Shown one piece after another: positions 6,796 through 35,946 of a stretch of DNA of 35,946 bases. A model generated the notes under the pieces. The model ran no database searches and was not told the DNA's origin. It saw only the letters and a list, made by a program, of their open reading frames with translations. The translations under genes were made by a program, and so were the position numbers. The stretch is from an uncultured bacterium (GTDB lineage: Bacteria; DAOPZR01): NCBI GenBank assembly GCA_964637655.1, contig CAZWUZ010000006.1:1-35946 (forward strand), read 5' to 3'. Every line of letters starts with the position of its first letter. Position 1 is the first letter of the stretch.

Positions 6796-6842
6796 CGGTC
6801 ATCCGGCTTGCGCGGTGTTGTTTCGGCAAGTATAGTTGGACT

Positions 6843-9169: not shown

Positions 9170-9171
9170 TC

Positions 9172-13055: not shown

Positions 13056-13070
13056 TGCCGCCGCCTGAGA

Positions 13071-15925: not shown

Positions 15926-15934
15926 GAGGTGGGC

Positions 15935-18946: not shown

Positions 18947-18969
18947 TGTAGCGTCGGGAACGCGGGCTG

Positions 18970-19830: not shown

Positions 19831-20633
19831 CGGGACACCAGCAGGCGCAGCGCCGCCAGCCAGCGGCAGGGCAACGTCAGCAGCAGCGGCCAGAGCAGTG
19901 CGGGTGCGTCGAGACAGCGGCGCGCCACGGCCGGCAGGTTGAGCAGTGGCAGCAGCCAGCAGCGCATGAACCATGGCAGCCCGTGCCGGCGGCGCACGAG
20001 ATGCTCAAAGTAATGGTAGCGGTAGAGCAGTCGGCAGAAGGAGACGATGGTGTCAGCACGGTGATGCTCCGCCCGCGCGGCTGCGCTGCGCTGCAGCGTC
20101 AGTCCGCGCGCCCGCAGCCGCCGCCCGAGATCATAGTCCTCGCCGTTGCTGCGGTAGCGTTCGTCGAACCCGCCGGCGGCACGCAGCGCCTCCGTGCGAT
20201 AGAGCACGCAGAGGCCGGGCAGGAACGCGAGCGGCTCCGGCGGCTGCTGCGCGAGGAAACGCGCGCGGAACCGGTCGTAGACGGTGCAGGCGACTGCCTC
20301 GCTGATGGTCGCGCCGCACCCGGCGGCATCTGCCGGCAGCGTGGCACCGAGCTGCGCGAGGCAATCCGGCGCGGGAACGACATCGGCATCGATGAAGAAA
20401 AGGAGGTCGCCGGTGGCCGCCGACAGCGCGGTGTTGCGCGCCGCGGCGAGCCCGCGATTGGTCTCGTGGCGCAGCAGGCGGACACCATCGGGGACCGTGA
20501 GCGGCGGCACCGAGCCGTCGTCAACCACGATGATCTCTGCCGGGGACAGCGTCTGTGCCTGCAGTGCCGCCAGCGCGCGCGGCAGGTGCTCCGGCTGATT
20601 GCGCACGCAGAGGGCGGCAGTGACGGATGCCAT
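19827..20633 (-). CDS. GT2 family glycosyltransferase
   Basis: Motifs SVTAALCVRNQ, IIVVDDGS, FIDADV and NGEDYDLGRRL indicate GT-A/GT2. The ATG overlaps the upstream stop (TGATG at 20631-20635). Confidence 0.8.
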   Translation of the reverse strand: MASVTAALCVRNQPEHLPRALAALQAQTLSPAEIIVVDDGSVPPLTVPDGVRLLRHETNRGLAAARNTALSAATGDLLFFIDADVVPAPDCLAQLGATLPADAAGCGATISEAVACTVYDRFRARFLAQQPPEPLAFLPGLCVLYRTEALRAAGGFDERYRSNGEDYDLGRRLRARGLTLQRSAAARAEHHRADTIVSFCRLLYRYHYFEHLVRRRHGLPWFMRCWLLPLLNLPAVARRCLDAPALLWPLLLTLPCRWLAALRLLVSR

Positions 20634-21877
20634 CAGTTCCTTCCGGCCCGGCGCTGTGCGACCAGTTCCGCGTAGAGCGCGCGGTAGGCGTCGGCGACAT
20701 GCACCCAGGTGTGGCGGGCGGTGACCAGTTCGCGGCCGGCGCGGCCGAGGCGCGCGCGTTGCGCATCGTCGCCGGCCAGTTCCTGCATGATGGTCGCGAG
20801 TGCGGCGGCGTCGTCGGGCGGCACGAAGCGTGCCGCATTGCCGTCGGCACCGGCGAGGTCGCGTTGCGGCGGCGCCTCGGCGAAGACCACCGGCAGTCCG
20901 GCAGCCCAGGCGTCGAGCGCGGCGATGCCGAACGAATCGGTGACGGTCGGATAGAGAAACACGTCGGCGGCGGCGTAGAGCTGCGCCTTGTCTTCCCCGG
21001 GAAAATCGGGGACGAGGGTAAGCCGCGCGCGTGCCGTCGCCGGGAGGCGTTCTGCTGCGGCGTGCACTTCTGCTGCGTACGGGCTGCGCGTGCTCCCCGC
21101 GAGCAGCAGGTGGCAGTCGGTGCCGGCGGCAACGCAGCGGGCGAAGGCGTCGAGGATGAGCGGCAGTCCCTTGCCCGGAATGAACTGCCCGGCATACAGG
21201 AACACCGTGCCATCAAGCCGCCAGCGCGTGCGGGCGGCGCTGCGGTCGACGCCGTCCGTCCAGCCGGGGTCGGCACCCGCGGCGATGAGGTGCACACAGT
21301 CAGCGGCGACGCCGTTGCGGACAGCACACTCGCGCTCGAATGGCGTGTGTGCGACATAGGCAGCAGCGCGACGGGTGAACCGCCAGGTGTACGGGTGGCG
21401 GTGCAGCGGCTCGCGGTCATGGTAGGCCCCGACGAGCACCAGCGGAGTACCGGTCAGCGGCGCCAGCCATGCCGCGGCAGGCATCTGCAGGCAGGGGAAG
21501 GTGGTCGCCATGACGATGTCGTGACAGCCGTGCAGCAGGCGGGGGAGGAGCGCAGGCATACGCGGTCCGAAACGGACGTAGCGCAGATGCGCGCCCGTCA
21601 TCCCGTCGCCACAGAAGGCGATGGCCCGGTCGAGCCACCGGGTGCCCCCGCGCCAGGTGCGCAGCCGCTCCACCCGCACGCCGTTGATGACCTCCACGCC
21701 GCAGGGTAATCGCTCGCGCTGCGGCAGATTGAAATCATCGCAGCAACAGCCGTCCGGGCAGAGTACGGTGACCCGGTCTCCGTGACGGTTGACCAGCAGT
21801 TCTGATACACGTTGTACGCGGTATTCACTCCCCCCCCGCGCTGGCGCGTACCCCTGAACGATATGCAGGATATCCAT
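20633..21877 (-). CDS. GT4 family glycosyltransferase (first gene of minus-strand operon)
   Basis: MDILHIVQGYAPARGG is a GT4 N-terminus. C-terminal motif YPTVTDSFGIAALDAWAAGLPVV (E-x7-E-like region). ATG at 21875-21877 (minus). Confidence 0.8.
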   Translation of the reverse strand: MDILHIVQGYAPARGGSEYRVQRVSELLVNRHGDRVTVLCPDGCCCDDFNLPQRERLPCGVEVINGVRVERLRTWRGGTRWLDRAIAFCGDGMTGAHLRYVRFGPRMPALLPRLLHGCHDIVMATTFPCLQMPAAAWLAPLTGTPLVLVGAYHDREPLHRHPYTWRFTRRAAAYVAHTPFERECAVRNGVAADCVHLIAAGADPGWTDGVDRSAARTRWRLDGTVFLYAGQFIPGKGLPLILDAFARCVAAGTDCHLLLAGSTRSPYAAEVHAAAERLPATARARLTLVPDFPGEDKAQLYAAADVFLYPTVTDSFGIAALDAWAAGLPVVFAEAPPQRDLAGADGNAARFVPPDDAAALATIMQELAGDDAQRARLGRAGRELVTARHTWVHVADAYRALYAELVAQRRAGRN

Positions 21878-22032: not shown

Positions 22033-23085
22033 ATGCGGTGTACCTGGAAGAAAACCGCCTTGCTGGGTATCGCAGTGATGCTGATGGCGGGCGTGTTCCT
22101 GCCGGATGCGCTCAGGGCCTCACGGCGGCGCATGGTAGTGGTACTGGTGACGGTTTCCGGACTAACCTACGATGCAGTGGTTGCCAGTCAGTCGCAGAGC
22201 ATGCCGCAACTGCGAGAGCTGATGCGGACCGGGGCATTGTTCACGAACGTGTACGCTCCGGCTGACAATGCCGCAGCGTCTCTTGCCTCGCTGCTTACCG
22301 GTATGAGTGTGCCGGAACATGGCGTGTGGGAAAAGGGGGATGTGCTGCTGAACAGCGTGCCGCTGCTGCCTGATGACTGGCGGCGACGCGGGATGCCGAC
22401 AGCGGCATTCAGCAATTCACCGCTGCCGCTGACGACCAGCCTGACCCACGGGTTTGCAGTCGCTCCGCCGCCGGCGATGGATGCCGCGCAGGTGAACGGC
22501 ATGGTGGCGGCATGGCTGGCGGAGCATCCTGCCGGTGGCACACCGCCGGCGCTCTGGGTGCACTACCGGGATGTGCTTACAGTTTCCGGTGGTGCGGAAG
22601 CGTTGCGCATGACCGATTACCACATCGGCAAACTGCTAACGGTACTCCGGCACGCCGGGTACCATCAGGGCAACACCATGTTTCTCGTTGCCGGGGTGCC
22701 CGGACCGGCGGCAGGCGGTGCACCTGCCGACCGGTTGTGCCGCGAAGTGGTGCACGTGCCGCTGGTCTGGTCGGTGCCCGGCGGGCGGCGGCAGGCGCGC
22801 CCTGAACTGCGGTCACTGGCCGACGTGCCGGCGCTGTTGCGGGCGGAACTGGACGGGTTGCCCTGGCCGTTGCCCGCGGCGGAAGTGTTCGCTACCGCCG
22901 GCGGCGCCCGCAGCGGCCGCCTGCACCTGGCGGCGATCAGTCCGGGCCGGTTTGCGGTTGACCAGGCCGCGACTGAACTCTCCCCGGCCGGGCAGGCATT
23001 TCACGCGCGCCAGCTGGCGCGTTCGCCGCTGCTGACCGCAGCGCGGCGCAGCGAAACACTGCGCGCCACCGGCTACCTGCACTGA
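22033..23085 (+). CDS. sulfatase-fold (alkaline phosphatase superfamily) protein, predicted catalytically inactive paralog; N-terminal signal/TM
   Basis: Collinear with the next gene but with active-site blocks degenerated. VVLVTVSGLTYDAV replaces the metal-binding DTxRADH block, APADNAAASLASLLTG replaces the nucleophile motif, and LVAGVPG replaces TADHGE. N-terminal hydrophobic segment KKTALLGIAVMLMAGVFL. Confidence 0.6.
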   Translation: MRCTWKKTALLGIAVMLMAGVFLPDALRASRRRMVVVLVTVSGLTYDAVVASQSQSMPQLRELMRTGALFTNVYAPADNAAASLASLLTGMSVPEHGVWEKGDVLLNSVPLLPDDWRRRGMPTAAFSNSPLPLTTSLTHGFAVAPPPAMDAAQVNGMVAAWLAEHPAGGTPPALWVHYRDVLTVSGGAEALRMTDYHIGKLLTVLRHAGYHQGNTMFLVAGVPGPAAGGAPADRLCREVVHVPLVWSVPGGRRQARPELRSLADVPALLRAELDGLPWPLPAAEVFATAGGARSGRLHLAAISPGRFAVDQAATELSPAGQAFHARQLARSPLLTAARRSETLRATGYLH

Positions 23086-23086
23086 T

Positions 23087-24493
23087 ATGCCGTCGCTGGC
23101 CCGCGCGACCCGGTTTTTCGTTGTGGTGCTGCTGCTGGCGGCCGGTATCATCGCGGGGTGGTGGCTGCAGCGCACACCGGAACCCGCCGCGGACGATACC
23201 CCCTCCTGCATCATCCTGCTCAGCATGGACACGGTGCGTGCTGACCATCTCTCACTCTACGGGTATGCGCGTCCAACGACTCCGCAGCTTGCGGCACTGG
23301 CTGCGGAGGCGGTGACTTTTACGCGGGTGTTGAGCCCGGCCCCGGCCACGGCACCGGCGCATATGTCAATGCTGACCGGGGTTTCGCCGGCGGTACACGG
23401 GGTCTACAATTACGGGGGCGGTGCGGTGCGACGGGTAGCGCCGTCGCTGCCGCTGCTCACCACGCTGCTGCGGCAGCACGGCTACCGGACGGAAGCGCTG
23501 GTCAGTTCGCCCAATGTCGGTGCGGAACTCGGGTTTGCCACGGGCTGTGACGGCTTCAGCGAGGATTTTTTCGCCTGCGGGCGGCTGTATGATGATGCCG
23601 GGCGCACGGAACGCGAGGAGGAGCAGCGGCTGCGCGACCTGCTGACGCGGGGCGGACGGGAGGAGAAACTCTTCCTGTTCCTGCACCATTATTTCTGCCA
23701 CCGCGTCTACCTCGCCCCTCCCGCGGCGTATCGTGAACGGTTCGCGGCAGCATTGCTGCCGGGCCTGCCGCGCAGCATTGCCGACGTGCGCCGCCAGGGC
23801 ACGGGAAATGACGACCATGATTTTTTCTCCCGGTTTGACGGCGGCACTGCCGCGCAGCGGGAGCATGTCGTGGCGCTGTATGACGGCACGCTTGCCTATG
23901 CCGACCATGTCGCCGGCATGCTCGTGCGCCTGCTGCACGAAACGGGGCGCTACGACCGCACCCTGCTGGTGGTTACCGCCGACCATGGCGAGGAGTTCAT
24001 GGAGCACGGGAGTTGGGGACATGACCAGCTGTACCGCGAGCATCTCGATGTTCCGCTGCTGGTGAAACTTCCGGGCCAGCGTGCCGGCGGCCGGCGGTAT
24101 GAGATACCGGTGTCCACGCTCGCGCTTGCCCCGACGATTCTCGCCGCTGCCGGCCTGCCCGTTCCCGCCCATATGCAGGGGCAGGTGCTGCCGCCGCTGG
24201 CGGATTCCCCGGCGGCGCGTCCGCTGGTTGCCTACCAGAACAGTGGTGATGAGCAGGGCAGAGATGTTGTTACCGGCATGCGGGTGGAAGATGGCGGGTA
24301 CGCGTGGTACTGGCACAACGGTGACAGCACCAGCGCGCGGTTGCATCTGCTGACGGATACCATGGAGCAGCATGACCTGGCGGGGGTGCGCCCGGAAATC
24401 GCGGCGCGGATGCGGACGCAGGCGGCAGCGCTGCTGGAGGAAGACCGCGCCTGCCGGGCACAGCTGGAAGCGGCACTCTCCGGCGAAGAGTGA
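23087..24493 (+). CDS. sulfatase-fold (alkaline phosphatase superfamily) hydrolase/transferase with T-x-P-x-H in place of sulfatase C/S-x-P-x-R
   Basis: ILLSMDTVRADHLSLYGY is the metal-binding block, SPAPATAPAHMSMLTG is the nucleophile block with Thr/His, and LVVTADHGEEFMEHGSWGH is the conserved DHGE block. N-terminal TM FFVVVLLLAAGIIAGWW. Confidence 0.75.
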   Translation: MPSLARATRFFVVVLLLAAGIIAGWWLQRTPEPAADDTPSCIILLSMDTVRADHLSLYGYARPTTPQLAALAAEAVTFTRVLSPAPATAPAHMSMLTGVSPAVHGVYNYGGGAVRRVAPSLPLLTTLLRQHGYRTEALVSSPNVGAELGFATGCDGFSEDFFACGRLYDDAGRTEREEEQRLRDLLTRGGREEKLFLFLHHYFCHRVYLAPPAAYRERFAAALLPGLPRSIADVRRQGTGNDDHDFFSRFDGGTAAQREHVVALYDGTLAYADHVAGMLVRLLHETGRYDRTLLVVTADHGEEFMEHGSWGHDQLYREHLDVPLLVKLPGQRAGGRRYEIPVSTLALAPTILAAAGLPVPAHMQGQVLPPLADSPAARPLVAYQNSGDEQGRDVVTGMRVEDGGYAWYWHNGDSTSARLHLLTDTMEQHDLAGVRPEIAARMRTQAAALLEEDRACRAQLEAALSGEE

Positions 24494-25783
24494 TCAGGCG
24501 TCCTGCAGCAGAATCTTGACCTGGCCGGGGAGCAGGTGGTACTCGAAGTGGCTGCCGATTTCCGCCACGCGGTGCTCGGGTGACACGTCGCGCACCGCGC
24601 CGCGGCGCTGGAACGGGGCGCTCACGTCATGCAGGCAGACGCGCTGATGCGCGCCAAGGTCGCGGTTGACGAGCAGCAGCGCCTGCTGCCGGCGGTCGCG
24701 GCTCACCTTGCGCAGCGCCAGCACGTTCCCTGAGCCGATGAGCGGCACCACGGTCGCGAAACTGTCCTCGTGCAGCACCCGGTGCTCTTTTTTGACCGCC
24801 AGCAGCGCGGTGATGAACGGCGACAAATCGACGTCTGTCTGCTCGCGGTCTGTCGGGCGCGTGCGTACCACATGGAGTTTCTGCCGGTAGCCGAACTCCG
24901 TCCCCTGCGTCAGCATGAAACCCGCCGACCAGCAGGCGGTGAACGCCAGCCGCTGCTTGACCGCCTCGACGTTGCCGCTGCAGTCCGCCAGCAGGCGCGG
25001 GGTATCATGCGATTCGGCGAAACTGATGCTCGGCACATCGCGCACGAAGACGAGGTACTCGTGCTGCTGCTGCAGCAGCCACTCGTCGCGGAAATTCCAG
25101 TACTTGCTGCTGTTGAAGGTGAAATCGAACCCCGCCCCCGCCAGCGCGATGCTCTGGTCCACCGTGCAGCCCAGCGACTCGGCGAGGAAAAGCGTTTCGC
25201 GCCGCTGCCGCGCGTCGGCGATCAGATCACCCCACACCCCGGCGGGTACCTGATAGGCGGCGTCGCAGCGGAAACCGTCGGCGCCCAGTTCCTGCAGCCA
25301 GGCAATCAGTTTGTGCCAGTAGACCGTCAGTTCACGCCGGGCTTTCGCGTCGGTGTAGTCAAGTTCCGCCAGGTCGCCCCACTCCACCCACCTGCCGTTG
25401 TCGAGCGCCCCGGGATGAGCAATCTTCCCGTCCGGCTTCCGCTGGTACCAGTGCGGGTGCTGCGTGACGAGCGGGGAATCGAAGGCGGTGTGGTTGATGA
25501 CCAGGTCGAGGATGACCCTGAGTCCCGCCTTGTGCGCCGCGGCAAACGTGTTGCGCAGCGTGCCGAGCGGGTTGCAATCACCCTCGACGAGCAGCGGGTG
25601 CAGACGGTAGTAGTCGGCCACCGAGTAGAGTGACCCCGAGTAGCCGGGCTGGTGAATGGGGTTGAGGTAGACGGCGTTGCAGCCGAGCGCGGCGATACGC
25701 GGAAATTCCGCCGCCCAGGTGCGTACCGGGCCGGCCAGCAGCGGAAACAGGTTGTAAAGCAGCAGCGGTTCGCGGTCGGCCAT
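24494..25783 (-). CDS. GH13 alpha-amylase family protein (glucan hydrolase or transglycosylase)
   Basis: GH13 blocks LDLVINHTA (region I), GFRCDAA (region II, catalytic Asp), EFGY/FAESHD-type later blocks. Start at ATG 25781-25783 has GAGGTG 9 nt upstream. An alternative ATG at 25816 has a poor SD. Tail-to-tail with the sulfatase-like gene, no spacer. Confidence 0.8.
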   Translation of the reverse strand: MADREPLLLYNLFPLLAGPVRTWAAEFPRIAALGCNAVYLNPIHQPGYSGSLYSVADYYRLHPLLVEGDCNPLGTLRNTFAAAHKAGLRVILDLVINHTAFDSPLVTQHPHWYQRKPDGKIAHPGALDNGRWVEWGDLAELDYTDAKARRELTVYWHKLIAWLQELGADGFRCDAAYQVPAGVWGDLIADARQRRETLFLAESLGCTVDQSIALAGAGFDFTFNSSKYWNFRDEWLLQQQHEYLVFVRDVPSISFAESHDTPRLLADCSGNVEAVKQRLAFTACWSAGFMLTQGTEFGYRQKLHVVRTRPTDREQTDVDLSPFITALLAVKKEHRVLHEDSFATVVPLIGSGNVLALRKVSRDRRQQALLLVNRDLGAHQRVCLHDVSAPFQRRGAVRDVSPEHRVAEIGSHFEYHLLPGQVKILLQDA

Positions 25784-25880
25784 CAGGGCACCTCGTCGTC
25801 GGGATATGCGCAGCATACCTTGCCCGTTCCGCTACCGTCAACCGTAGTGCCGGAGAAAAGAAGAAAAGAGAGAAGAAAAG

Positions 25881-26205: not shown

Positions 26206-27621
26206 CTAATTGCCCAGCTGGCTCAGCTGTCCGGTCAGCCAGCTGGCGGTGTTCTGGAACTTGGCCAGCGCCATTTCGAGATTGGTGAAGGTGGTGCGGT
26301 AGCCCGCCTCGCGGCGCTCGAGAATGAGATCGAAGGCGTCGATGCGGTCCTGCAGCATGTCGATGGAGGACTGCATGGCGTCCTGCTGGTCGGCGAGCAG
26401 CCCGCCATACTGGGTCAGCGGGGTGAGGTACTCATCCATGCCCACCGCGATGCCCTCGTCGTAGCCGGCGCTGCCGTCGGTGTCCTTGGCGAACAGGGAA
26501 CGCACCGCGTCGGGGTTGGCAGTGATCGCCGCGCGCAGCGCGGTCTCGTCGATGATCAGCTTGTTGGCATCGCTGGTGCCGTAGGTGCCCAGCTCGACGC
26601 CGATGGCGCTGAGCGAGGTGTACTCGCCCGCGCTGCTGTAGCGGCCCATGGCGACATTGTAGAGGCGGTTTTCGATCTGCGTGGCGAAGATGTTGCCGGC
26701 CAGTTCGCCCGTGCCGCTGACCGCCCCGTCGCTGCCCAGGGTGATCTGCGTCTGCCGGCGGATGAAGTCGGTGCTGCTGTTGTACTGGTCGACCCATGCC
26801 TTGACCGCGTTGAAAATGCTGCCGGTATCGGTGGCGACGGTGAGCGTGGCGGCGCTGTAGTCGGCGGGCCAGGCGTCAATCCCGTCGATGCCGGTGACGT
26901 CCTGGAGGCTGATGGTCACCCCGGTGATGACGTCGTCGATGCCCGTGTTGGCGCTGCGCGTCACCTCGATGCCGTCGACGGAGAAAATGGCGTCCTGCGC
27001 CCCCTGCAGCTCGGTGACGAAGGTGTCGGGGGCGGAGATGACGTTGAGGTCGGTCATCAGCGTGCCGGACGTGTCGCTCAGGGTCAGCGTGTTGGCGCTG
27101 CCCGGCTCGGCCGCCTTGAGGATGAGGTGGTTGTCGACCACCGTGGCGCTGACCTCGTCCCCGTCAGCGTAGTCGGCGCTGTTGATGGCGGAAGCCACCT
27201 GCGCGAGTGTCTGCCCCGCGGTGACGCTGATGAGTTTGCCGTTGAGGGTGAAGGAGGAGTCGGCCCCGACCGTCCAGGCATCCGCCTGCTGCGCGCTGCG
27301 CACCTGCTGCGCCAGCGCCAGCTGCTTGACCTTGAGGTCGTAGGTGCCCGCGGTGGCGGTGTTGTCAGCCGTGGCGGTGAAGACGGAGGTGTCGGATGAG
27401 GTTGCGGTACGCCCCTGCCAGAGCGAGCTTTCGGTCAGCGCCTCGGATTTTGTTTTCAGGGAGAGGAGCCGGCTGTTGATGTCCTTCCAGGCGTCCTTGT
27501 CCCTGGTGTACTGGTTCTGGCGGTTGACCCACGCGGTAATCGGCTTGCGCTCGACCGCCATGAGCTGATCGATGGTGCTGTTCCAGTCGTTGCCGGTGGC
27601 GAGCCCTGAAATGGATCCCAT
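26206..27621 (-). CDS. fliD: flagellar filament capping protein FliD (hook-associated protein 2)
   Basis: The N-terminus MGSISGLATGNDWNSTIDQLMAVERKPI and C-terminus YRTTFTNLEMALAKFQNTASWLTGQLSQL are the conserved FliD terminal coiled-coil segments. ATG at 27619-27621 has GGAGGGAG upstream. The track start at 27711 is a spurious extension. Confidence 0.9.
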   Translation of the reverse strand: MGSISGLATGNDWNSTIDQLMAVERKPITAWVNRQNQYTRDKDAWKDINSRLLSLKTKSEALTESSLWQGRTATSSDTSVFTATADNTATAGTYDLKVKQLALAQQVRSAQQADAWTVGADSSFTLNGKLISVTAGQTLAQVASAINSADYADGDEVSATVVDNHLILKAAEPGSANTLTLSDTSGTLMTDLNVISAPDTFVTELQGAQDAIFSVDGIEVTRSANTGIDDVITGVTISLQDVTGIDGIDAWPADYSAATLTVATDTGSIFNAVKAWVDQYNSSTDFIRRQTQITLGSDGAVSGTGELAGNIFATQIENRLYNVAMGRYSSAGEYTSLSAIGVELGTYGTSDANKLIIDETALRAAITANPDAVRSLFAKDTDGSAGYDEGIAVGMDEYLTPLTQYGGLLADQQDAMQSSIDMLQDRIDAFDLILERREAGYRTTFTNLEMALAKFQNTASWLTGQLSQLGN

Positions 27622-27658
27622 AGGTCGTCTCCCTCCATGGAGTCGGTTGCTGCTCGAT

Positions 27659-27686
27659 ATATCGGCAGCAGCGCCCGTATACTTTA
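27659..27686 (-). promoter_or_regulatory. sigma-28 (FliA/SigD)-type promoter upstream of fliD
   Basis: Minus strand reads TAAA-N16-GCCGATAT (plus-strand coordinates 27683-27686 and 27659-27666). It matches the class III flagellar promoter consensus TAAA-N15-GCCGATAA/T and lies about 40 nt upstream of the fliD ATG. Confidence 0.55.
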
Positions 27687-27752
27687 TATGCCGGCAGAAT
27701 AAACGATACAATTAGAGCAAAACAGAGAGATATAACGATACAAAAAAGCCGG

Positions 27753-27781
27753 TTGACAGGGCGTGGGCGGTCGTGTAGCAT
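27753..27781 (+). promoter_or_regulatory. sigma-70-like promoter for the flotillin-ATPase operon
   Basis: TTGACA (27753-27758), a 17-nt spacer, then TAGCAT (27776-27781). An A-rich tract (caaaaaag) upstream may act as an UP element. Lies 97 nt upstream of ATG 27878, which has a GGAAGGAG SD. Confidence 0.5.
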
Positions 27782-27877
27782 GAGCGCTGTACCCCAACTG
27801 CATATCCGTACCGGAACGCATTACCGGCCGCCGTGCGCGGCCGCGCCCATACACCTGCTGGTGGAAGGAGTTTCCGC

Positions 27878-29959
27878 ATGGATGGCATCTCGATGGTGAT
27901 TACCGGAGTTATCGGCCTGTTCGGCACGCTGGTTGTCCTGGCGGTGCTGTACGGGATATTGCGGGTGGTGATCGGCTGGACCTACCGCATCCCGCAGCAG
28001 GGGCAGGCGCTGGTGCGCACCGGCGTGGGGGGGATCCGCATCGCCTTCGAGTCGGGCATCTTCGTCTTCCCCATCGTGCACCGGCTGGAGATCATGGACA
28101 TCAGCGTCAAGCGCGTGGAAATCCACCGTGAGGGCTCGACGGGCCTGATCTGCAAGGACAACCTGCGCGCCGACATCAAGGTGACCTTCTACGTGCGCGT
28201 GGACAGCAAGTCCCCCGATCACGTCAAGGCGGTGGCGCAGATTCTCGGCTGCCAGCGCGCCTCGGACACGCAGGTGCTGGCGGAACTGTTCGAGCCGAAG
28301 TTCTCCGACGCGCTCAAGACCGCGGGGCGCGACTTCAACTTCGAGGACCTGCTCAACAAGCGCGCCGAGTTCCGCGACGCGATCAAGGTCCATGTCGGCA
28401 CCGACCTCAACGGTTACATCCTCGACGACGCGGCCATCGACATCCTCGAGCAGTCGAAAGTGGAAAAACTCGACCCGAACAACATCCTCGACGCCGAGGG
28501 AATCAAGCTGATCACCGAGCGCACGGCGGTACAGGCCATCCTGACCAACGAGCGCAACCGTGACAAGGAGCGCGAGATCAACAAGAAAAATGTCGAGACG
28601 CGCGAGATCGTGCTCGAGCAGAACAAGCAGCTGGCCGAGGCGGAGGAAAAGCAGAAGCGGGAGGTGGCCTCGATCAAGGCCCGCGAAGAAGCGGAAACGA
28701 TCAAATTCCAGCAGGAGCAGCGGCTGCGTCACGAGAAGGCGCGCATCGCCTCTGACGAGGAAATCCAGGTCAGCGAGGAGAACAAGAACCGGCAGATCAT
28801 CGTGGCCGCGCGCAACCGCGAGCGCACCGACGGGGTCGAGCAGGTGCGCGTGCAGAAGGACCGCCAGCTCGAGGACGTCGAGCGCGACAAGGTGGTGTCG
28901 CTCGCCGCCATCGAGAAGACCAAGGTGGTCGAGACCGAGCAGAAGAACATCCAGGAGGTGATCCGCGCCCGCGTCGCCGTGCAGAAGGACGTGGTCGTCG
29001 AGGAACAGCGCATCAAGGATACCGAGGCGTTCGCCACCGCCGAGCGCGAGAAAAAGGTGGTCATTACCATGGCCGAGGCGGAGGCGGAACAGGCGGTGGT
29101 GCGGCAGGTGAAGGCGGCGGAGGCGGCGAAACAGGCGGCGGAACTGAAGGCAGAACAGGACCTGCTGGTCGTGCTCAAGGCGGCCGAGGCGCAGCGCCAG
29201 GCGGCGGCCCTGCTCGCCGAGAAGCGCGTGACGGAGGCGACGGGCGAGCAGGAGGCGTCGGCCCGCATCGCCACCGGCAAGAAGGCGCTGGCCGAGGGGA
29301 TCACCGCCGAGCAGGCGGCCGCCGGGCTGGCGGAGGCGAACGTCATCGCCGCGCGGGCGGCGGCGCTGCAGAAGCAGGGGGAGACCGAAGCGAGCGTGGC
29401 GCAGCTGAAATTCAAGGCGGAAGCGGACGGCATCACCAAGAAGGCCGAGGCGATGAAACTGTTCCACGAGGCGGGGCGCCAGCACGAGGAATTCAAGCTG
29501 CGCCTCGGGGTGGAGAAGGATATCGCGCTGGCCGACATCGCCGTGCGCAAGGACATCGCCGCCAGCCAGGCGGAAGTGCTCGGCGAGGCGCTGAGCCACG
29601 CCAAGGTGGACATCGTCGGGGGCGAGACGCAGTTCTTCAGCAGTGTGGTCAACGCGGTGACGGGCGGGCGCATGGTCGATCACGCGGTCGACAGCAGCCG
29701 CGTGCTCGGTGATGTGCACGCGGCGCTCACCGCGGGGGGCGCGGAGGGGTTTGCCGCGCGCCTGCGCGAGCTGCTCGCCCGCTTCCCGCTCGGCAGCGAG
29801 GACGTGAAGAACCTGACCATCGCCGCGGCGCTGGCGAAACTGGCGGGCGTGGCGTCGGGCGCCGACGCGAAGCGTCTCGTGCGCGACCTGCTGACGCAGG
29901 CGCAGGAGCGCGGGCTGGCGGAAAAAAGGGTCGGCGACCTGCCGGGCGGGGGCGCCTGA
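27878..29959 (+). CDS. flotillin-family SPFH (band 7) domain protein with N-terminal membrane anchor and long EA/Q-rich coiled-coil
   Basis: N-terminal TM (ISMVITGVIGLFGTLVVLAVLYGIL), then an SPFH domain, then about 350 aa of Ala/Glu/Gln-rich flotillin-type coiled coil (AEAEQAVVRQVKAAEAAKQAAELKAEQ...). 693 aa. The track start at 27833 extends through the SD and is rejected. Confidence 0.9.
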   Translation: MDGISMVITGVIGLFGTLVVLAVLYGILRVVIGWTYRIPQQGQALVRTGVGGIRIAFESGIFVFPIVHRLEIMDISVKRVEIHREGSTGLICKDNLRADIKVTFYVRVDSKSPDHVKAVAQILGCQRASDTQVLAELFEPKFSDALKTAGRDFNFEDLLNKRAEFRDAIKVHVGTDLNGYILDDAAIDILEQSKVEKLDPNNILDAEGIKLITERTAVQAILTNERNRDKEREINKKNVETREIVLEQNKQLAEAEEKQKREVASIKAREEAETIKFQQEQRLRHEKARIASDEEIQVSEENKNRQIIVAARNRERTDGVEQVRVQKDRQLEDVERDKVVSLAAIEKTKVVETEQKNIQEVIRARVAVQKDVVVEEQRIKDTEAFATAEREKKVVITMAEAEAEQAVVRQVKAAEAAKQAAELKAEQDLLVVLKAAEAQRQAAALLAEKRVTEATGEQEASARIATGKKALAEGITAEQAAAGLAEANVIAARAAALQKQGETEASVAQLKFKAEADGITKKAEAMKLFHEAGRQHEEFKLRLGVEKDIALADIAVRKDIAASQAEVLGEALSHAKVDIVGGETQFFSSVVNAVTGGRMVDHAVDSSRVLGDVHAALTAGGAEGFAARLRELLARFPLGSEDVKNLTIAAALAKLAGVASGADAKRLVRDLLTQAQERGLAEKRVGDLPGGGA

Positions 29960-29973
29960 CCGCGGGCTGACCC

Positions 29974-32900
29974 GTGGCGGAAAGCGCTCCCGCTGTTCCG
30001 GCCCCCGGGCTGGAAGCGGGCACCTACGAGATCCTGCGGCAGCGCCTGCGGGCGCAGGCGGACCTGCTGCGCGACCGGCTCGCGGTGCTCGACCGCGAGC
30101 GGCGTGCGGTGTTCGGCGCCATCCCCTTCGCGCTGCAGTCGACGGAGCGCATCACCACCGCCAACAACTGCGTGCCGCGCGACCTGGTGGCCATCGGCCC
30201 CGACTGCTTCCTGCTCGGCTATAACGTGCGCCTCGGGCTGCGCACGGAGACGAACCTCGCCGACGTTTTCGCCCGCTATTCCTACCGCGGGCACCAGTTC
30301 CACGAGGAGTCGCTCGACTGCCTGCAGAGCGGCGAGTTCGAGCGCGATTTCAAGGAACTCTACAAGTATTACCGCGCGGCCACCTTCTCGGCGTTCCGCG
30401 TCATCGGGCCGCACCTGTACATGGCTTTCCAGGTGGGGAAGACCGCGGACGACCTCAAGACCTTCAAGTGGGCGCTCGACAACGGCGTGCTCACCTATCT
30501 CGGCAACCGCTCCGACCACGAGTTCACCTACCCGCCGCAGCACGAATTCGCGTGGCGGCGCGCGGTGCGCGACTTCCACCGTCTCGGCACGCATCCGCAT
30601 GTCAGCATCGAGGACCGCGTTTTCGTCGAGTGCGTCGGGGGCGACCTGACGGTCAAGGTCGAGGACAACACCGAGACGGGCGAGGGCATCTACACCGAGC
30701 CGGTGGAAAACCGCGACCAGACGCTCGACGACGCGGAAATCCACTACGCCATCGTCGGGGCGCTGATCCTCCTGCGCCTCCGCCCCTTCCAGGAGAAGGC
30801 GTACCGCTACCTCGTCTACAGCGAGAAACTGCGCACGGTGTACCGCGTCGACGACATCGGCGAGGCGTGCGTGCTCCTCCCCGACGACCAGGGAATCGTC
30901 TTCCCGCACGGCTACGTGCTGCAGACGGGCGAGTGCAAGCGCTTCGACAACGATTTCACCGGCATGGTCTACGCCGGGCGCTGCGACGCGCCCAACGGCG
31001 AGGACTACCTGTACGACTTCCTCAACCGCGACACGGGGGTGGATATCGTCCTCGCCTACAACCGCATCGCGCAGAGCATGCAGCCGCCCATCATCTGCAA
31101 CGGGTTCGCGGTGTTCGACAGCGGCGCAATGGTGCTCTTCCGCAGCGACGACCAGCCGCAGAAGCATCACGCGCTGCAGGTCTGGCAGACGCCGTTCGTC
31201 GGGCGCAACGTCGTCCCGGCCGCGGCGCGCACCGACTCGTTCCTCTACAAACTGGGGAGCGCGACGGTGGTCAACGCGCTGGCCGAGGGGCACGAGATCC
31301 TCGCGCTGTGCGGCAAGGACGACACCTATGCCGGTCTGTACAGCGACCTCGTGCGCGCGACCGCGACCATGCTCGACACCTACTTCTGGCTGCACGAACC
31401 GGCGGCGGGCAGTCTGCGCGAGCCGCTGCAGGGGATCCGCACCGCCGCGTCCGCCGCCATCGCCGAGTACGAGAAGGTGGCGCGGCTCAAGCGCACGGCG
31501 CAGGCGGAACTGCAGCGGCAGCGGCAGGCGGTGGCGGAGCAGGTGCGGGCCATCGACTACTACGCGCTCAAGCGTATCGACGTCTTCGTGCAGCACCTGG
31601 CGGGGCTGCGGGCGCGGCGCGGCGCGCTGGTGACCGCGCGCGAGGTGCGCTATGTCGACCTGCCCGCGCTGGCGCAGCTCGAGCAGGAGGTGGCCGGGCA
31701 CGCGGAAAAGCTCTTCGGGCTGTGCGTGCAGTTTCTGCTCGGGGACGAGGCGCTCGCCCCCTATGCGCAGCGCGCGGAGGGGTTCCGCGCGCAGGTGCCG
31801 CAGGCGGCGACCGGCAAGGCGGCGACGGAACTGGCCGCGGCCATCAGCGCGGCGGCGGGCGAACTGGAGATGCTCATCGAGATCGTCGGCACGCTGAAGA
31901 TCGACGACGCGACGCAGACGACGCGCATCGTCGACCGCATCTCGACCATCTACGCCGCGCTCAACCAGGTCAAGTCGCTGGCGCAGGCGCGGCGGCGCGA
32001 CCTGGCGGGAGCGGAGGGAACGGCGCAGTTCGCGGCGCAGCTCAAGCTGCTGGCGCAGGCGGTCACCAACTACCTCGACCTGGCGTCTGACGCGGCGAAA
32101 TGCGACGAGTACCTGACCAAGCTGATGGTGCAACTCGAGGAACTCGAGGGCGCCTACGCCGACTTCGACGAGTTCCTGCCGCAGCTGGCGGCGAAGCGCG
32201 AGGAGATCTACGGCGCCTTCGCGGCGAAGAAGGTGCAGCTGGCGGAGGCGCGGCAGCGGCGCTGCAACGCGCTGGCGGAGACCGCCGAGCGCATCCTCAC
32301 CGGCATCCGTCACCGTGCCGCGTCGTTCGCCGCGCTCGACGACCTCAACGCCTACTTCGCGTCCGACCTGATGATCGACAAGGTGCGCGACACCGCGGCG
32401 AAACTGACCGCGGCGGAGGAAACCGTGCGCGCCGAGGAGATCCTCGGGCGCCTCAAGACCATTCAGCAGGACGCGGTGCGCCAGCTCAAGGACAAACTCG
32501 AACTGTACGTCGACGGGGCCAATGTCATCCGCTTCGGGACGCACCATTTCTCGGTCAACACCCAGCCGCTCGACCTGGCCATGGTCCTGCGTGACGGGGA
32601 GATGCACTACCACCTGACGGGCACCAACTACTTCGAACCGGTGACCGACGCGGAGTTTCTCGCCACGCGCGCGGTCTGGAATCGCGAGGTGGTGGCGGAG
32701 AGCCCGCAGGTCTACCGCGCCGAGTACCTCGCCTGGAGCATCCTGCGCGATGCGGTGATGCGCGGCAGCGCGGCGCTGGCGGAGTGGCGCGGGCATGACG
32801 CGGCGGCGCGCCTCGCGGCGGTGCGCGCGTTCATGGCGCCGCGCTACGCGGAAGGGTATGTCAAGGGGGTGCATGACACCGACGCGGCGCTGCTGCTCGG

Positions 32901-35598
32901 GGAACTGCTGCGCCTGCACGGTGAACTGCAGCGCCTGCGCTTCGCTCCCGCCGCGCGCGCGCTGGCCCGCCTCTGGTGGGAGGATCCCGCCGACCCGGAA
33001 CGCAAGCGTCTGCTCGGGGCGCGCCTGCGCAGCCGCGGCGCCGCCCGCCGCCAGTTCCCGCACTGGGAGGACCGCGCGGTCATTGCCGAGGCGGAACAGC
33101 TGCTGGCCGCGTATGCCGCGGCGGGCGGATGCGGCAGCGCGCCGCCCGCGGCCGCGGCGGAATACCTCGCCGACGAACTGGGCGAAGGTGACCGCTTTGT
33201 CGTCAGCAGCGAGGCGGCGGCGCTCGTTGCGGGCTGTCTCGACGCGCTGCGCGCGCGCGGGGCGCTGGCCGATTTTACCGCCGCGCGCGAGGCGGTGAAG
33301 GACGACCGCCGCGCCGCGTGGTGCGTCGTTCGCGACTGGCTAGCCGCCTACCTGACTGACGGCAACGGCCGCCACGACGCGGCGTTCCTCGACGAGGCGG
33401 CGGGTCTGCTGCTCGCGGGCGGCGCCACGGCGGCAGCCGCGGGTGCGGCCAGCGCTGCGGTGACCGTCAGCGGCATGGTCGGCACCCACCCGGTCATCGC
33501 CGGGGGCGAGTACCGGCTCAACTACCACGCCTTCATGGAGAAACTCGACCGCTTCGCCGCGGTCGAGGTGCCCGCCTTCACCCGCTGCGCGGAGCGCAAG
33601 CAGGCGCTGCTGGCACAGCGCCGCGCGGAACTCCGCCTGCAGGAATTCGTCCCGCGCGTGCTGACGACGTTTGTGCGCAACCGCCTTATCGACCGGTACT
33701 ACCTGCCGCTGCTCGGCGGCAACATGGCCAAGCAACTGGGCACCACGGGGGCCGACAAGCGCACCGACCGCTCGGGCCTGCTGCTGCTCATCTCCCCGCC
33801 GGGCTACGGCAAGACCACGCTCATCGAGTATCTTGCCAGCCGGCTCGGCATCGTCTTCATGAAGATCAACGGGCCCGCGCTCGGGCCGCGCGTCACCTCG
33901 CTCGATCCCGCCGAGGCGCCCAACGCGGCGGCGCGCGAGGAGATCAGCAAACTCAACCTTGCGCTCGAGATGGGGGACAACGTCCTCATCTGCCTCGACG
34001 ACATCCAGCATACCAGCCCCGAGTTCCTGCAGAAGTTCATCTCGCTGTGCGACGCGCAGCGCAAGATCGAGGGAGTCTTCCGCGGGCAGCCGCGCACCTA
34101 CGATCTGCGCGGGCGCAAGGTGATGGTGGTCATGGCGGGCAACCCCTACACCGAGAGCGGGGCGCGCTTCGTCATTCCCGACATGCTCGCCAACCGCGCT
34201 GATACCTACAACCTCGGCGATGTTGTTTCCACCAACGAGGAGATCTTCCGCGAGAGTTACCTCGAAAACGCGGTGACGTCCAATCCCGTCATCGCGCGGC
34301 TCGGACGCGCCAGCCAGCAGGACGTGCAGGCGGTCATCCGCCTCGCGCAGTCGGGCGGCACCGCGACGGTCGATCTGGCGGGTACTTACTCTCCGGAAGA
34401 ACTGAGCGAGATGGTCGAGGTGATGCGCCGCCTTATCCGCATTCGCGACATCGTCTACCGCGTCAACCAGGAGTATATCCGCTCCGCCGGCACCGCCGAG
34501 GCGTACCGCACCGAGCCGCCGTTCAAGCTGCAGGGCTCCTACCGCAACATGAACCGCCTCGCCGAGAAGGTGCTGCCGGTGATGACTGACGCGGAGATCG
34601 ACAACCTGATCTTCGACCATTACAAGAGCGAGGCGCAGACGCTGACCACGGGCGCGGAAGCCAACCTGCTGAAATTCCGCGAACTGACCGGCACGCTGAC
34701 GGGGGCGGAGGCGGAACGCTGGGCGGAGATCAGGCGCGCCTTCAAGCGCAACCTGCTTGCGGGAAGCGGTGACACGGACGACCCCGTCGGGCGCGTCGTG
34801 GCGCAACTGGCGTCGTTCCGCGAGGGGATCGACACGCTCGAAGCGTCGCTGGCGAAGGGACTGGCGGGTGCCGCGGAGCAGCTGCGTGGCGCGCTGCCGG
34901 CCGCCACGGCGGCGACCGCGCCGGCGAAGGCGGAAATGGCGCTGTCGCCCGAAACCGTGGCGCAGCTGACCCGACTGGCGGAGCAGGCGGCACCGCGTGT
35001 CGTGGTGGTGCCGGTGCCGGTGGGTGGAGGACTTGCTCCGGTGTCGCGCGTGGAACCGGCACCGGTACAGGCGACGCCCGCGGTTCCGGCTGCACATCCG
35101 GCAGCTGATCACCCGGCCATGCCCGCGGCGCAGCCGTCGGCGAAACCGGGGGCACCGCCGCAGATCACCGGCGAGTACCGTGATGAGTTTGTGCTGCCGC
35201 TGGGCGAACTGCTCACCTTTCCCGCGCGCACCTACACGCTGCGCGGCAGCAATATCCGTCCCGGCGCGCACCTCTTCGTCTACGACAAGAAACAGCCGAT
35301 CGTCGTGCGCGACGGCGCGTCGGTCATCTACACCCCGCCTCCCAACCCGAAACTGCGCCCGTGCGTGGTCATCGGCGAGGTGGCGCTCGGGTTCCGGGTG
35401 GACGGGCCGCAACAGGCGACCCTGACGCTCGAACTGCGCCAGACGGTCAACCGCGGCCTGCAGGAACCGTATACCGAGGTGCTGCCCGTCACCATCATCA
35501 ATCCCGACGGCACCTACGCGCCCTATGTGCAGCTGCAGTTCCTTGCCACGCCGCAGGCGGGCCAGCCGGTGCGGCCGAAACGGAAGCCCGCGAGGTGA
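29974..35598 (+). CDS. giant (1874 aa) multidomain protein with central AAA+ ATPase module, coiled-coil segments and Pro/Ala-rich linker; flotillin-associated
   Basis: Continuous open frame with strong GC3 bias. Walker A LLLISPPGYGKTTLIEY (nt ~33790-33825), Walker B VLICLDDIQH (nt ~33981-34010) and MVVMAGNPYT (a sensor-1-like block). Pro/Ala-rich low-complexity linker at nt 35020-35165. The start is GTG 29974, the first possible start after the in-frame stop at 29968-29970, so the exact start is uncertain. Confidence 0.8.
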   Translation: MAESAPAVPAPGLEAGTYEILRQRLRAQADLLRDRLAVLDRERRAVFGAIPFALQSTERITTANNCVPRDLVAIGPDCFLLGYNVRLGLRTETNLADVFARYSYRGHQFHEESLDCLQSGEFERDFKELYKYYRAATFSAFRVIGPHLYMAFQVGKTADDLKTFKWALDNGVLTYLGNRSDHEFTYPPQHEFAWRRAVRDFHRLGTHPHVSIEDRVFVECVGGDLTVKVEDNTETGEGIYTEPVENRDQTLDDAEIHYAIVGALILLRLRPFQEKAYRYLVYSEKLRTVYRVDDIGEACVLLPDDQGIVFPHGYVLQTGECKRFDNDFTGMVYAGRCDAPNGEDYLYDFLNRDTGVDIVLAYNRIAQSMQPPIICNGFAVFDSGAMVLFRSDDQPQKHHALQVWQTPFVGRNVVPAAARTDSFLYKLGSATVVNALAEGHEILALCGKDDTYAGLYSDLVRATATMLDTYFWLHEPAAGSLREPLQGIRTAASAAIAEYEKVARLKRTAQAELQRQRQAVAEQVRAIDYYALKRIDVFVQHLAGLRARRGALVTAREVRYVDLPALAQLEQEVAGHAEKLFGLCVQFLLGDEALAPYAQRAEGFRAQVPQAATGKAATELAAAISAAAGELEMLIEIVGTLKIDDATQTTRIVDRISTIYAALNQVKSLAQARRRDLAGAEGTAQFAAQLKLLAQAVTNYLDLASDAAKCDEYLTKLMVQLEELEGAYADFDEFLPQLAAKREEIYGAFAAKKVQLAEARQRRCNALAETAERILTGIRHRAASFAALDDLNAYFASDLMIDKVRDTAAKLTAAEETVRAEEILGRLKTIQQDAVRQLKDKLELYVDGANVIRFGTHHFSVNTQPLDLAMVLRDGEMHYHLTGTNYFEPVTDAEFLATRAVWNREVVAESPQVYRAEYLAWSILRDAVMRGSAALAEWRGHDAAARLAAVRAFMAPRYAEGYVKGVHDTDAALLLGELLRLHGELQRLRFAPAARALARLWWEDPADPERKRLLGARLRSRGAARRQFPHWEDRAVIAEAEQLLAAYAAAGGCGSAPPAAAAEYLADELGEGDRFVVSSEAAALVAGCLDALRARGALADFTAAREAVKDDRRAAWCVVRDWLAAYLTDGNGRHDAAFLDEAAGLLLAGGATAAAAGAASAAVTVSGMVGTHPVIAGGEYRLNYHAFMEKLDRFAAVEVPAFTRCAERKQALLAQRRAELRLQEFVPRVLTTFVRNRLIDRYYLPLLGGNMAKQLGTTGADKRTDRSGLLLLISPPGYGKTTLIEYLASRLGIVFMKINGPALGPRVTSLDPAEAPNAAAREEISKLNLALEMGDNVLICLDDIQHTSPEFLQKFISLCDAQRKIEGVFRGQPRTYDLRGRKVMVVMAGNPYTESGARFVIPDMLANRADTYNLGDVVSTNEEIFRESYLENAVTSNPVIARLGRASQQDVQAVIRLAQSGGTATVDLAGTYSPEELSEMVEVMRRLIRIRDIVYRVNQEYIRSAGTAEAYRTEPPFKLQGSYRNMNRLAEKVLPVMTDAEIDNLIFDHYKSEAQTLTTGAEANLLKFRELTGTLTGAEAERWAEIRRAFKRNLLAGSGDTDDPVGRVVAQLASFREGIDTLEASLAKGLAGAAEQLRGALPAATAATAPAKAEMALSPETVAQLTRLAEQAAPRVVVVPVPVGGGLAPVSRVEPAPVQATPAVPAAHPAADHPAMPAAQPSAKPGAPPQITGEYRDEFVLPLGELLTFPARTYTLRGSNIRPGAHLFVYDKKQPIVVRDGASVIYTPPPNPKLRPCVVIGEVALGFRVDGPQQATLTLELRQTVNRGLQEPYTEVLPVTIINPDGTYAPYVQLQFLATPQAGQPVRPKRKPAR

Positions 35599-35602
35599 AA
35601 CG

Positions 35603-35946
35603 ATGAGCGGCTCGGCTTACGGCACGGCGCTGTCGTCGCTGGAAACACTGCTGCGCACCATCGCCGAGGTGCGCGCACAGTTCGCGGCGGGTGGCGCCTT
35701 CGGGGCGCTGCGCCTGCTCGTCCGCCGCAACCAGCGGCGCAACCTGCTGCAGCTGCTGGCCGCGGCGCACGCTGAACTCGAACACGATCCCGACGTGCTG
35801 GCGCAGGCAATCGCCAGTGGCGCCGCGGGCGCGGATGCCGCCGCCTGGGCGGCGAATGCCGACGCGGTGACGAAACTCGCGTTGCGCGGCTCCGGCTTCG
35901 TGCGCGCACGGCAGCAGGCGGCGCTGCAGCATATCTGGACGCTGCG
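35603..35946 (+). CDS. 5' part of a third gene of the flotillin operon (hypothetical, Ala/Leu-rich; continues past window)
   Basis: ATG at 35603, 4 nt after the giant ORF stop. Hand translation gives MSGSAYGTALSSLETLLRTIAEVRAQFAAGGAFGALRLLVRR... with nearly all codons ending in G/C. It is not in the ORF track because it has no stop inside the window. Confidence 0.45.
   Translation, partial: MSGSAYGTALSSLETLLRTIAEVRAQFAAGGAFGALRLLVRRNQRRNLLQLLAAAHAELEHDPDVLAQAIASGAAGADAAAWAANADAVTKLALRGSGFVRARQQAALQHIWTL

Follow-up and report, generated by a model that had tools for sequence, protein, structure and literature searches.

Gene Layout at the Contig End

At the 3' end of contig CAZWUZ010000006.1, from an uncultured bacterium (assembly GCA_964637655.1), three co-directional genes on the + strand encode a flotillin-like protein of 693 amino acids (aa), a giant AAA+ protein of 1874 aa, and a third protein whose gene is truncated by the end of the sequence. 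The window analyzed here is the complete NCBI contig of 35,946 bp. Comparison with related genomes shows that the first two genes are tightly co-inherited, whereas the third is an accessory of one subclade. The genes and their candidate expression signals are listed below.

27753 to 27781, + strand: candidate sigma-70-like promoter, TTGACA-17-TAGCAT (consensus scan, 10 of 12 matches)
27864 to 27869, + strand: Shine-Dalgarno-like AAGGAG, 7-8 nt before the flotillin ATG (read from the sequence)
27878 to 29959, + strand: gene for a YqiK-type flotillin-like protein, ATG to stop, 693 aa (YqiK homology by BLASTP and hhalign)
29974 to 35598, + strand: gene for the giant AAA+ protein, GTG to stop, 1874 aa (Pfam, AlphaFold models, Foldseek)
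35603 to 35946, + strand: 5' part of the third gene, from its ATG, 114 aa visible before the contig end

The three-gene layout, coordinates and lengths had been given correctly in a preliminary description made from the sequence, including the third-gene ATG 4 nt downstream of the giant's stop codon. The short gap upstream of the giant had likewise been recognized, although the flotillin-giant spacer measures 14 nt rather than 15. The mechanically called open reading frame (ORF) of the flotillin begins at a GTG at 27833. With the GTG start of the giant, the N-terminus of the protein lines up with the Met of its homologues in alignments; no Shine-Dalgarno sequence is evident ahead of this codon. 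The region has a G+C content of 62-72%, and long antisense ORFs of 632, 1127 and 690 aa are present as well. Homology identifies the + strand ORFs as the real genes, with at least 5,776 flotillin homologues and at least 3,501 giant homologues. The promoter candidate lies inside the 166-nt spacer that separates the flotillin gene from the divergent minus-strand gene fliD, and the scan found three such sites in the region compared with 0.4 expected from shuffled sequences. A strong promoter and ribosome-binding site had been proposed earlier; both motifs were recovered, but the candidate is a consensus match, and high expression is suggested by consensus matches only.

A Divergent YqiK-Type Flotillin

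The flotillin-like protein begins with a hydrophobic anchor (aa 1-36), which is followed by a divergent SPFH/Band-7 domain (approximately aa 35-200), a long helical region rich in Ala, Glu and Lys, and a C-terminal region that is conserved. Its assignment relies on the E. coli K-12 yqiJ-yqiK locus, which was fetched as a reference. BLASTP against YqiK gave an E-value of 5e-42 with 29% identity across aa 14-441, and an hhalign comparison of a 20-member flotillin family profile with YqiK gave a probability of 100% and an E-value of 3e-41, covering the Band_7 region of YqiK. E. coli YqiK itself matches Pfam Band_7 and Flot. The window protein has no match in Pfam, NCBIfam, PADLOC or the PDB sequences, even at E=10, and Band_7 is reached by two of the 20 family members (best E 8e-13). 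A search of the PDB with the family profile returned QmcA only, through the Ala/Glu-rich helix (E 1.2e-3), and this match was judged uninformative.

By its homology, the window protein is thus a true but divergent YqiK-type SPFH protein. The earlier identification as a flotillin therefore stands on YqiK homology, though not on any Pfam or NCBIfam recovery. The helical part, which had been singled out as exceptionally long, is a family trait, since the homologues keep a stable length of approximately 690 aa. The single N-terminal hydrophobic segment (aa 1-36, Kyte-Doolittle mean 2.58) aligns with the N-terminus of YqiK and is modelled as anchoring the protein in the inner membrane.

Architecture of the Giant AAA+ Protein

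Pfam recognizes three regions in the giant: DUF3686 at aa 32-471 (E 8e-170), DUF7902 at aa 592-675, and one AAA+ module at aa 1266-1393. The protein was modelled by AlphaFold in two parts, aa 1-1200 and aa 1151-1874, each with a mean predicted local distance difference test score (pLDDT) of 80. The first model contains a helix (aa 13-47), a strand-rich domain (53-405), long helices (423-842), a small beta unit (851-889), and a helical domain extending to about residue 1147. In the second, the AAA+ alpha/beta core and its lid are followed by further helices, a disordered stretch, and a confidently modelled all-beta domain. Taken together, the order along the chain is the helix at 13-47, a beta-propeller (~50-410), helical arms that include DUF7902 (~420-842), the beta unit (~851-889), a helical domain (~915-1147), the AAA+ module (~1237-1600), helices, a Pro/Ala tether (~1672-1729), and a beta domain (~1730-1860). 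More than 1,200 residues are thus assigned to the non-ATPase propeller and helical arms.

The propeller assignment was obtained with Foldseek, in which the N-terminal domain matched the propellers of Sec12, YCF48, CyRPA, PON1 and prolyl-oligopeptidase with a probability of 1.0 and E-values down to 3e-6, with low TM-scores. The N-terminal globular region of about 450 aa in the preliminary description corresponds to DUF3686, while the segments presumed there to be coiled coil were modelled as long helices or helical bundles. The giant has no convincing transmembrane segment and is therefore probably cytoplasmic; the third protein has no hydrophobic segment, so that among the three proteins a membrane anchor is found in the flotillin only.

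The presence of a single AAA+ module with a GYGKT Walker A and an Asp-Asp Walker B, as described earlier, was confirmed. The Pfam models AAA_22, AAA and AAA_5 all exceed their cut-offs at aa 1266-1393, with AAA_22 scoring best among the P-loop models. The two motifs were read from the translation:

33796 to 33819, + strand: Walker A, PPGYGKTT, aa 1275-1282, invariant in alignments
33988 to 34011, + strand: Walker B, ICLDDIQH, aa 1339-1346, with Asp-Asp in place of Asp-Glu

In alignments of 16 and 33 homologues, D1342, D1343, I1344, Q1345 and H1346 are invariant, as are the sensor 1 Asn (MAGNP), the Arg of NRAD (a candidate Arg finger), and the lid arginines. The canonical Walker B pattern hhhhDE was not found in the giant, which has ICLDD instead, and the Asp-Asp is invariant family-wide. 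The giant thus retains a predicted nucleotide site with an Asp-Asp Walker B, and the conservation of this pair suggests slow, switch-like hydrolysis rather than the activity of a fast unfoldase.

Classification of the module by sequence profile against the PDB was attempted and set aside, as the P-loop stretch alone matched p97 and RuvB (E ~1e-3), and structure comparison was needed. In Foldseek, the AAA+ core matched NorQ with an E-value of 1.8e-7, and the nearest folds were NorQ, CbbQ, midasin and dynein. In the model, the Walker B helix is separated from the sensor-1 strand by a beta-hairpin. As modelled, the core is structurally nearest to the MoxR/midasin/dynein group.

Conservation of the Flotillin-Giant Pair

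Relatives of the giant comprise at least 3,501 homologues and occur in at least 595 species genomes, in a survey using one genome per species. From these, 80 loci were kept, which represent Planctomycetota, Verrucomicrobiota, Bacteroidota, Desulfobacterota, Kiritimatiellota, Omnitrophota and one Firmicute, and recurrent neighbours were identified by de novo clustering of the genes around them. Linkage was counted in the 64 loci having more than 2.5 kb of upstream DNA. In 61 of these 64, the giant is directly preceded by a flotillin gene of the same orientation. Conversely, reverse look-ups starting from flotillin-family proteins on long contigs (L087-L089) found a giant downstream in all three cases. 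The flotillin-giant pair proposed from one contig is therefore a conserved unit, but the third gene, which had been included in the proposed module, is absent from 79 of the 80 loci. Neither of the outcomes named in the preliminary description as refuting it was obtained, since most giants do have a flotillin neighbour and the AAA region scores with P-loop models.

Several other genes recur around the pair. A YqiJ-family gene, encoding a membrane protein of ~225 aa, lies upstream of the flotillin in 53 of the 80 loci and also in L087-L089; the profile of this neighbour family matches E. coli YqiJ (E 6e-9). Farther upstream, PspA_IM30 is found in 13 related loci and a CesT_Tir_1 chaperone in nine, mostly in Bacteroidota, and a PLD/HKD gene accompanies the pair in six. 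L088 and pQBR103, a megaplasmid of Pseudomonas fluorescens SBW25, carry PspA as well. Operonic co-inheritance of flotillin and giant is thus tight, and linkage to YqiJ and PspA is frequent.

The pQBR103 locus (L090, NC_009444.1 85112-97641) carries a co-directional string that ends with the SPFH protein followed by the giant, in the order PspA, rhomboid protease, DUF2491, DUF350, DUF1190, glutathionylspermidine synthase, a hypothetical protein, SPFH, and "DNA repair ATPase". This string unites the two PspA operon classes that Ravi et al. (2024) define, and it is genetically tractable.

A fourth conserved gene between flotillin and giant was considered and rejected, as the small ORFs inserted there in ~20 loci are mutually unrelated. 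Inserts were observed at L023 9501-9920, L056 9532-9906, L043 9353-9910 and L045 9521-9943, forming two pairs conserved between loci; by eye, one pair is GxxExxY/PD-(D/E)xK-like and the other resembles a DUF559-type endonuclease. From these inserts, the operon seems to tolerate mobile or selfish genes. In L087, which lies on a 740-kb contig, the giant is broken into four consecutive ORFs of 101, 645, 698 and 301 aa (10357-15501), probably reflecting assembly frameshift errors or a pseudogene.

The system was called functionally uncharacterized in the preliminary description. It had in fact been described computationally as an operon by Ravi et al. (2024; mSystems 9:e00847-23, PMC11237479), including the YqiJ partner and the link to PspA and CesT/Tir. 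According to that paper, CesT/Tir-PspA operons are combined with a flotillin, a giant ATPase, a three-transmembrane YqiJ/YuaF protein and sometimes a PLD hydrolase, abbreviated operons without PspA are widespread, and chaperone-like, ESCRT-like roles in membrane dynamics are proposed from computational description. By matching architecture and context rather than by accession, the ATPase of that work is inferred to be the DUF3686 family.

A Subclade with a Different Partner Set

The window belongs to a subclade in which the giant carries two additional C-terminal features. Both the Pro/Ala-rich linker and the C-terminal domain had been noticed from the sequence, and the structural models bear them out:

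34987 to 35160, + strand: Pro/Ala-rich disordered tether, aa ~1672-1729, pLDDT 31-40, without secondary structure
35161 to 35595, + strand: all-beta domain at the C-terminus of the giant, aa 1730-1874, pLDDT mostly above 90, ~11 strands

The tether region is not conserved in the wider giant family, and the beta domain is confined to the window and six contigs, namely L001, L082 (P0002), L083 (P0004; Candidatus Lindowbacteria), L084, L085 and L086 (P0003). YqiJ is missing in all four beta-domain loci that have upstream DNA. Compared with the PDB, the beta-domain profile (alignment A7) gave no sequence match (E>0.7), and fold searches with the 724-residue model returned mainly matches to the AAA+ core and assigned no fold to the beta domain. 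The usual position of YqiJ is taken in L083 (1210-1980) by a protein of 256 aa whose N-terminus resembles a signal peptide and whose composition is beta-rich and porin-like.

The third gene was sought by tblastn, and L001 was its sole carrier among the 80 loci. It was initially concluded to be unconserved, and this conclusion was revised after look-ups of the closest giants found homologues in L082-L085. The gene starts 4 nt after the end of the giant gene in L001, L084 and L085 (the last with only the final 87 residues of the giant on its contig) and 21 nt after it in L083. In L082 the homologue lies upstream of the flotillin, and in L086 a PLD gene takes its place. A further conserved gene downstream was also rejected, as the 454-aa gene following in L085 is unrelated to the histidine kinase gene that follows in L001. 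The L082 homologue (571 aa) is preceded by an overlapping 164-aa gene without a Pfam match (4479-6685).

The C-terminal domain of the third protein lies past the end of the window and is described from proxies. The orthologue in L001 is 548 aa long and 54% identical, and P0242 (L085, 522 aa) serves as a full-length proxy, with 106 of 114 residues (93%) identical to the window fragment. P0242 has a helical N-terminal region, a Pro/Ala linker, and a C-terminal domain of ~260 aa. When 1.84 billion representative proteins were searched with a profile, 163 relatives emerged, most of which consist only of the C-terminal domain; no PDB sequence match was found for this domain. Cys40, Asp42, His114 and Cys139 do not vary across alignment A6, where they form the pattern CxDE ... 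H ... CG. Of 40 family members, 10 matched LCIB_C_CA (PF18599) weakly at E<=0.1, the best of them at 1.2e-6; P0248 reached an E-value of 2.7e-4 with 20.7 bits against a cut-off of 25, P0243 an E-value of 0.008, and the closest proxies, P0242 and P0244, had no match. A relationship of the third protein to LCIB and the beta-carbonic anhydrases is thus a lead only.

Interpretation and Alternative Explanations

The window pair is best explained as an abbreviated form of a flotillin-associated AAA+ system that comparative genomics ties to the PspA (phage-shock, ESCRT-III-like) membrane-stress network, in which the giant would use ATP to assemble or remodel flotillin/PspA scaffolds at the membrane. 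The likelihood of this explanation is only somewhat better than even. A remodeler or scaffold acting on flotillin had already been proposed from the sequence. That idea fits the gene context and the sole published proposal (PMC11237479), but the mechanism is an inferred one. By analogy with HflK/C, flotillin-1/2 and QmcA, the SPFH and helical regions of the flotillin would face the cytoplasm and assemble as a ring or cage. The giant would oligomerize through its AAA+ modules, probably as hexamers, and its propeller and arms may dock on flotillin assemblies and, where present, on PspA polymers. ATP binding and hydrolysis could then power assembly, disassembly or client exchange in sub-membrane scaffolds under envelope stress, in analogy to Vps4 on ESCRT-III or FtsH within HflK/C cages. 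Within the subclade, the docking role of YqiJ may have passed to the tethered beta domain and to the co-translated third protein with its putative Cys/His metal site, or these two may add another activity.

A number of observations weigh against this explanation. In the window itself, no PspA-like or CesT/Tir-like sequence was found anywhere in the 35.9 kb, and YqiJ is absent, the upstream neighbour of the flotillin being the divergent fliD; the PspA link therefore reaches this locus via homology to other loci only. Three of the 64 loci have a giant without an adjoining flotillin. The C-terminal Flot domain (PF15975) has no Pfam match in the window flotillin or its 20 relatives, and hhalign against the C-terminus of YqiK gave a probability of 2%, so that this domain is unsupported, though a remote similarity may exist. 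Because the catalytic Glu is absent from the Walker B motif, robust ATPase activity is uncertain. The predicted template modelling scores of the two giant models are low (0.49 and 0.58), and the domain arrangement is not fixed by them. MoxR-type ATPases, the closest structural relatives, usually act together with VWA/MIDAS partners, yet no such partner was seen among the recurrent neighbours of the 80 loci, where not every unclustered neighbour was scanned. Finally, no experimental paper on any member of the module was found in the literature.

The strongest competitor, unlikely but credible, is that the giant acts as a MoxR-type chaperone in the maturation of a different membrane complex, for example a respiratory or transport one, with the flotillin as its platform rather than its substrate. 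The closest solved structures, NorQ and CbbQ, are MoxR ATPases that are generally known to mature or activate other enzymes, JGI calls some members of the family "MoxR-like ATPase", and flotillins are generally described as client-recruiting scaffolds. What is missing is the client: only flotillin, YqiJ, PspA, CesT/Tir, PLD and the third gene recur, with neither a VWA/MIDAS partner nor a recurrent client gene among them. Somewhat less likely still is a nucleotide-gated scaffold that tethers flotillin cages to another cell structure and performs little or no mechanical work cycle. The invariance of the Asp-Asp Walker B, the large share of the chain given over to propeller and arms, and the rank of AAA_22 as best-scoring Pfam P-loop model would all suit such a role; on the other hand, the invariant sensor-1 Asn, putative Arg finger and lid arginines argue for a maintained catalytic site, and DnaA and other AAA+ proteins with an Asp-Asp Walker B are generally known to hydrolyse ATP.

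An anti-phage or conflict function, in which the pair would act as a membrane-associated abortive-infection system with the ATPase as sensor, is improbable. Large NTPases with repeat domains are common among defence systems, a PLD/HKD gene accompanies some of the pairs, toxin-antitoxin genes lie near some loci, and PADLOC returned faint matches to mad8 (E 6e-4), IetA (4e-3) and, for the third-gene fragment, OloA (9e-3). These matches are insignificant and at the level of the P-loop, however, and the family yielded no matches in 50,697 phage records and 13 in 72,556 plasmid records, mostly megaplasmids or chromosome-sized. It is broadly inherited, keeps a stable synteny in different phyla and is linked with PspA envelope-stress genes, while the flanks vary between loci and those in the window (fliD, glycan synthesis, sulfatases) form no defence island. 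The least plausible alternative, with very little in its favour, takes the giant to be a DNA repair ATPase with an incidental flotillin neighbour. "DNA repair ATPase" is, as had been stated in the preliminary description, the usual database label: the Pfam text for DUF3686 reads "ATPase involved in DNA repair", NCBI uses the names "DNA repair ATPase" or "DNA repair protein", and there are weak similarities to RuvB in the P-loop only. Nothing was found to support the label. The RuvB similarity is limited to ~45 residues at the P-loop and scores 19 bits against a family cut-off of 282; no nuclease, helicase or DNA-binding domain was detected in the 1874 aa by Pfam, NCBIfam, PADLOC or the structural models; and the conserved neighbours are the membrane proteins flotillin, YqiJ and PspA, with no repair genes among them. 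No papers were found in the literature on DUF3686, PF12458 or DUF7902, on LCIB together with flotillin, or on flotillin in combination with a "DNA repair ATPase", and hence none connecting these Pfam families, or the label together with flotillin, with DNA repair.

For the subclade, a more specific proposal would extend the flotillin-AAA+ explanation. The system may have been rewired, with YqiJ/NfeD replaced by the tethered beta domain and by a translationally coupled protein whose putative Zn-binding domain would be a distant relative of LCIB and the beta-carbonic anhydrases. The ATP-driven remodelling of flotillin cages would then be linked with an enzymatic activity or with one that senses CO2/bicarbonate or another small molecule. 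This proposal is speculative and quite unlikely. If true, it would amount to a link described for no SPFH system.

The function of bacterial flotillins is debated, and a dedicated energy-consuming partner has so far been unstudied. Here, one flotillin subfamily and an ATPase are inherited together in at least about 600 species of many phyla, and the ATPase is often wired to PspA, a bacterial relative of ESCRT-III; this co-inheritance and wiring provide a concrete handle on whether flotillin/PspA scaffolds undergo active assembly or dismantling, comparable to that of ESCRT-III by Vps4. The name "DNA repair ATPase" is misleading and need no longer be used. Among the tractable carriers of the pair are Hymenobacter, Roseibacillus, Rhodopirellula, pQBR103 of P. 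fluorescens, and records labelled Proteus mirabilis. The basic flotillin-ATPase association is already in the literature; what is new here is the sub-variant with a different partner set.

Other Genes in the Window

Other genes noted in the window are as follows:

724 to 2043: der/engA double-GTPase gene
2043 to 3509: gene for a fused Memo-like and AMMECR1 protein of 488 aa, immediately after der/engA
3517 to 5904, minus strand: 795-aa fusion of an FkbM methyltransferase and a B12-binding radical S-adenosylmethionine (SAM) protein
6696 to 8048, 8018 to 9169 and 9166 to 10332: three tandem radical-SAM/SPASM genes
10329 to 13055: B12-binding radical-SAM protein, a 908-aa fusion of radical-SAM and GT4 domains
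13071 to 15197, minus strand: B12-binding radical-SAM protein
15935 to 17620, minus strand: 561-aa ORF in the glycan/radical-SAM cluster, no Pfam match at E<=1e-4
17434 to 19084, minus strand: ABC-2-type exporter pair
18970 to 21877, minus strand: two GT2 and one GT4 glycosyltransferase genes
22033 to 24493: two sulfatase-family genes
24494 to 25816, minus strand: alpha-amylase-like gene
26206 to 27711, minus strand: fliD (FliD_N, Flagellin_IN, FliD_C), divergent from the flotillin gene

Positions 3517-17620 hold a dense cluster of radical-SAM enzymes on both strands, within which a SAM methyltransferase is also encoded. With the nearby glycosyltransferases and fliD, this looks like a glycan or flagellin-modification cluster. 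Given fliD, the organism is probably flagellated; recurrent linkage between flotillin and flagellar genes was not seen in the other loci. The related contig L086 contains an alpha-amylase gene too, there upstream of the flotillin and divergent from it, which hints at shared synteny within the subclade.

Comparison with Known Systems

The closest counterpart is the system of Ravi et al. (PMC11237479). The components are alike, namely a flotillin composed of a transmembrane anchor, SPFH and helical regions, and a giant composed of a helix, a propeller and an AAA+ module, and so is the gene order; related loci show the full set, including CesT_Tir_1, PspA_IM30, a YqiJ-like protein and occasionally PLD. 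In contrast, the window holds flotillin and giant without YqiJ, PspA or CesT/Tir, and its subclade adds the tethered beta domain and the third gene of ~550 aa, neither of which is mentioned in the passages of that paper that were read.

The pair also resembles E. coli YqiJ-YqiK and Bacillus subtilis YuaF-FloT in its homologous SPFH and helical regions (E 5e-42 to YqiK) and N-terminal anchor, and related loci retain a YqiJ-family gene directly upstream. The E. coli locus, however, has no giant ATPase, and the window flotillin is ~140 aa longer, misses both Pfam Band_7 and Flot, and has no YqiJ partner in the window.

Large cages are formed by SPFH proteins such as HflK/C with FtsH, flotillin-1/2, and QmcA, a 26-mer. 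HflK/C-FtsH, in which an SPFH scaffold is coupled genetically and functionally to an inner-membrane AAA+ protein, is the best-understood precedent for an SPFH-AAA+ partnership. FtsH differs in being a membrane-anchored, classic-clade AAA+ protease on the periplasm-facing side of a cage, whereas the giant has neither a protease domain nor a transmembrane segment and shows MoxR/midasin-like affinity in its AAA+ module. With the MoxR ATPases (NorQ, CbbQ, RavA) and midasin/dynein it shares an AAA_5 match above the cut-off and the beta-hairpin between Walker B and sensor 1 of its model. Unlike MoxR ATPases, it has no VWA/MIDAS partner gene among its conserved neighbours and has DD rather than DE in Walker B, and it is ~7 times longer than NorQ or CbbQ owing to its propeller, helical arms and C-terminal additions. 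Compared with Vps4 acting on ESCRT-III (Snf7), no MIT domain was detected in the giant and PspA is absent from the window; yet in many relatives the AAA+ protein is genetically coupled to a polymer of the PspA/ESCRT-III superfamily, in line with the analogy drawn by Ravi et al.

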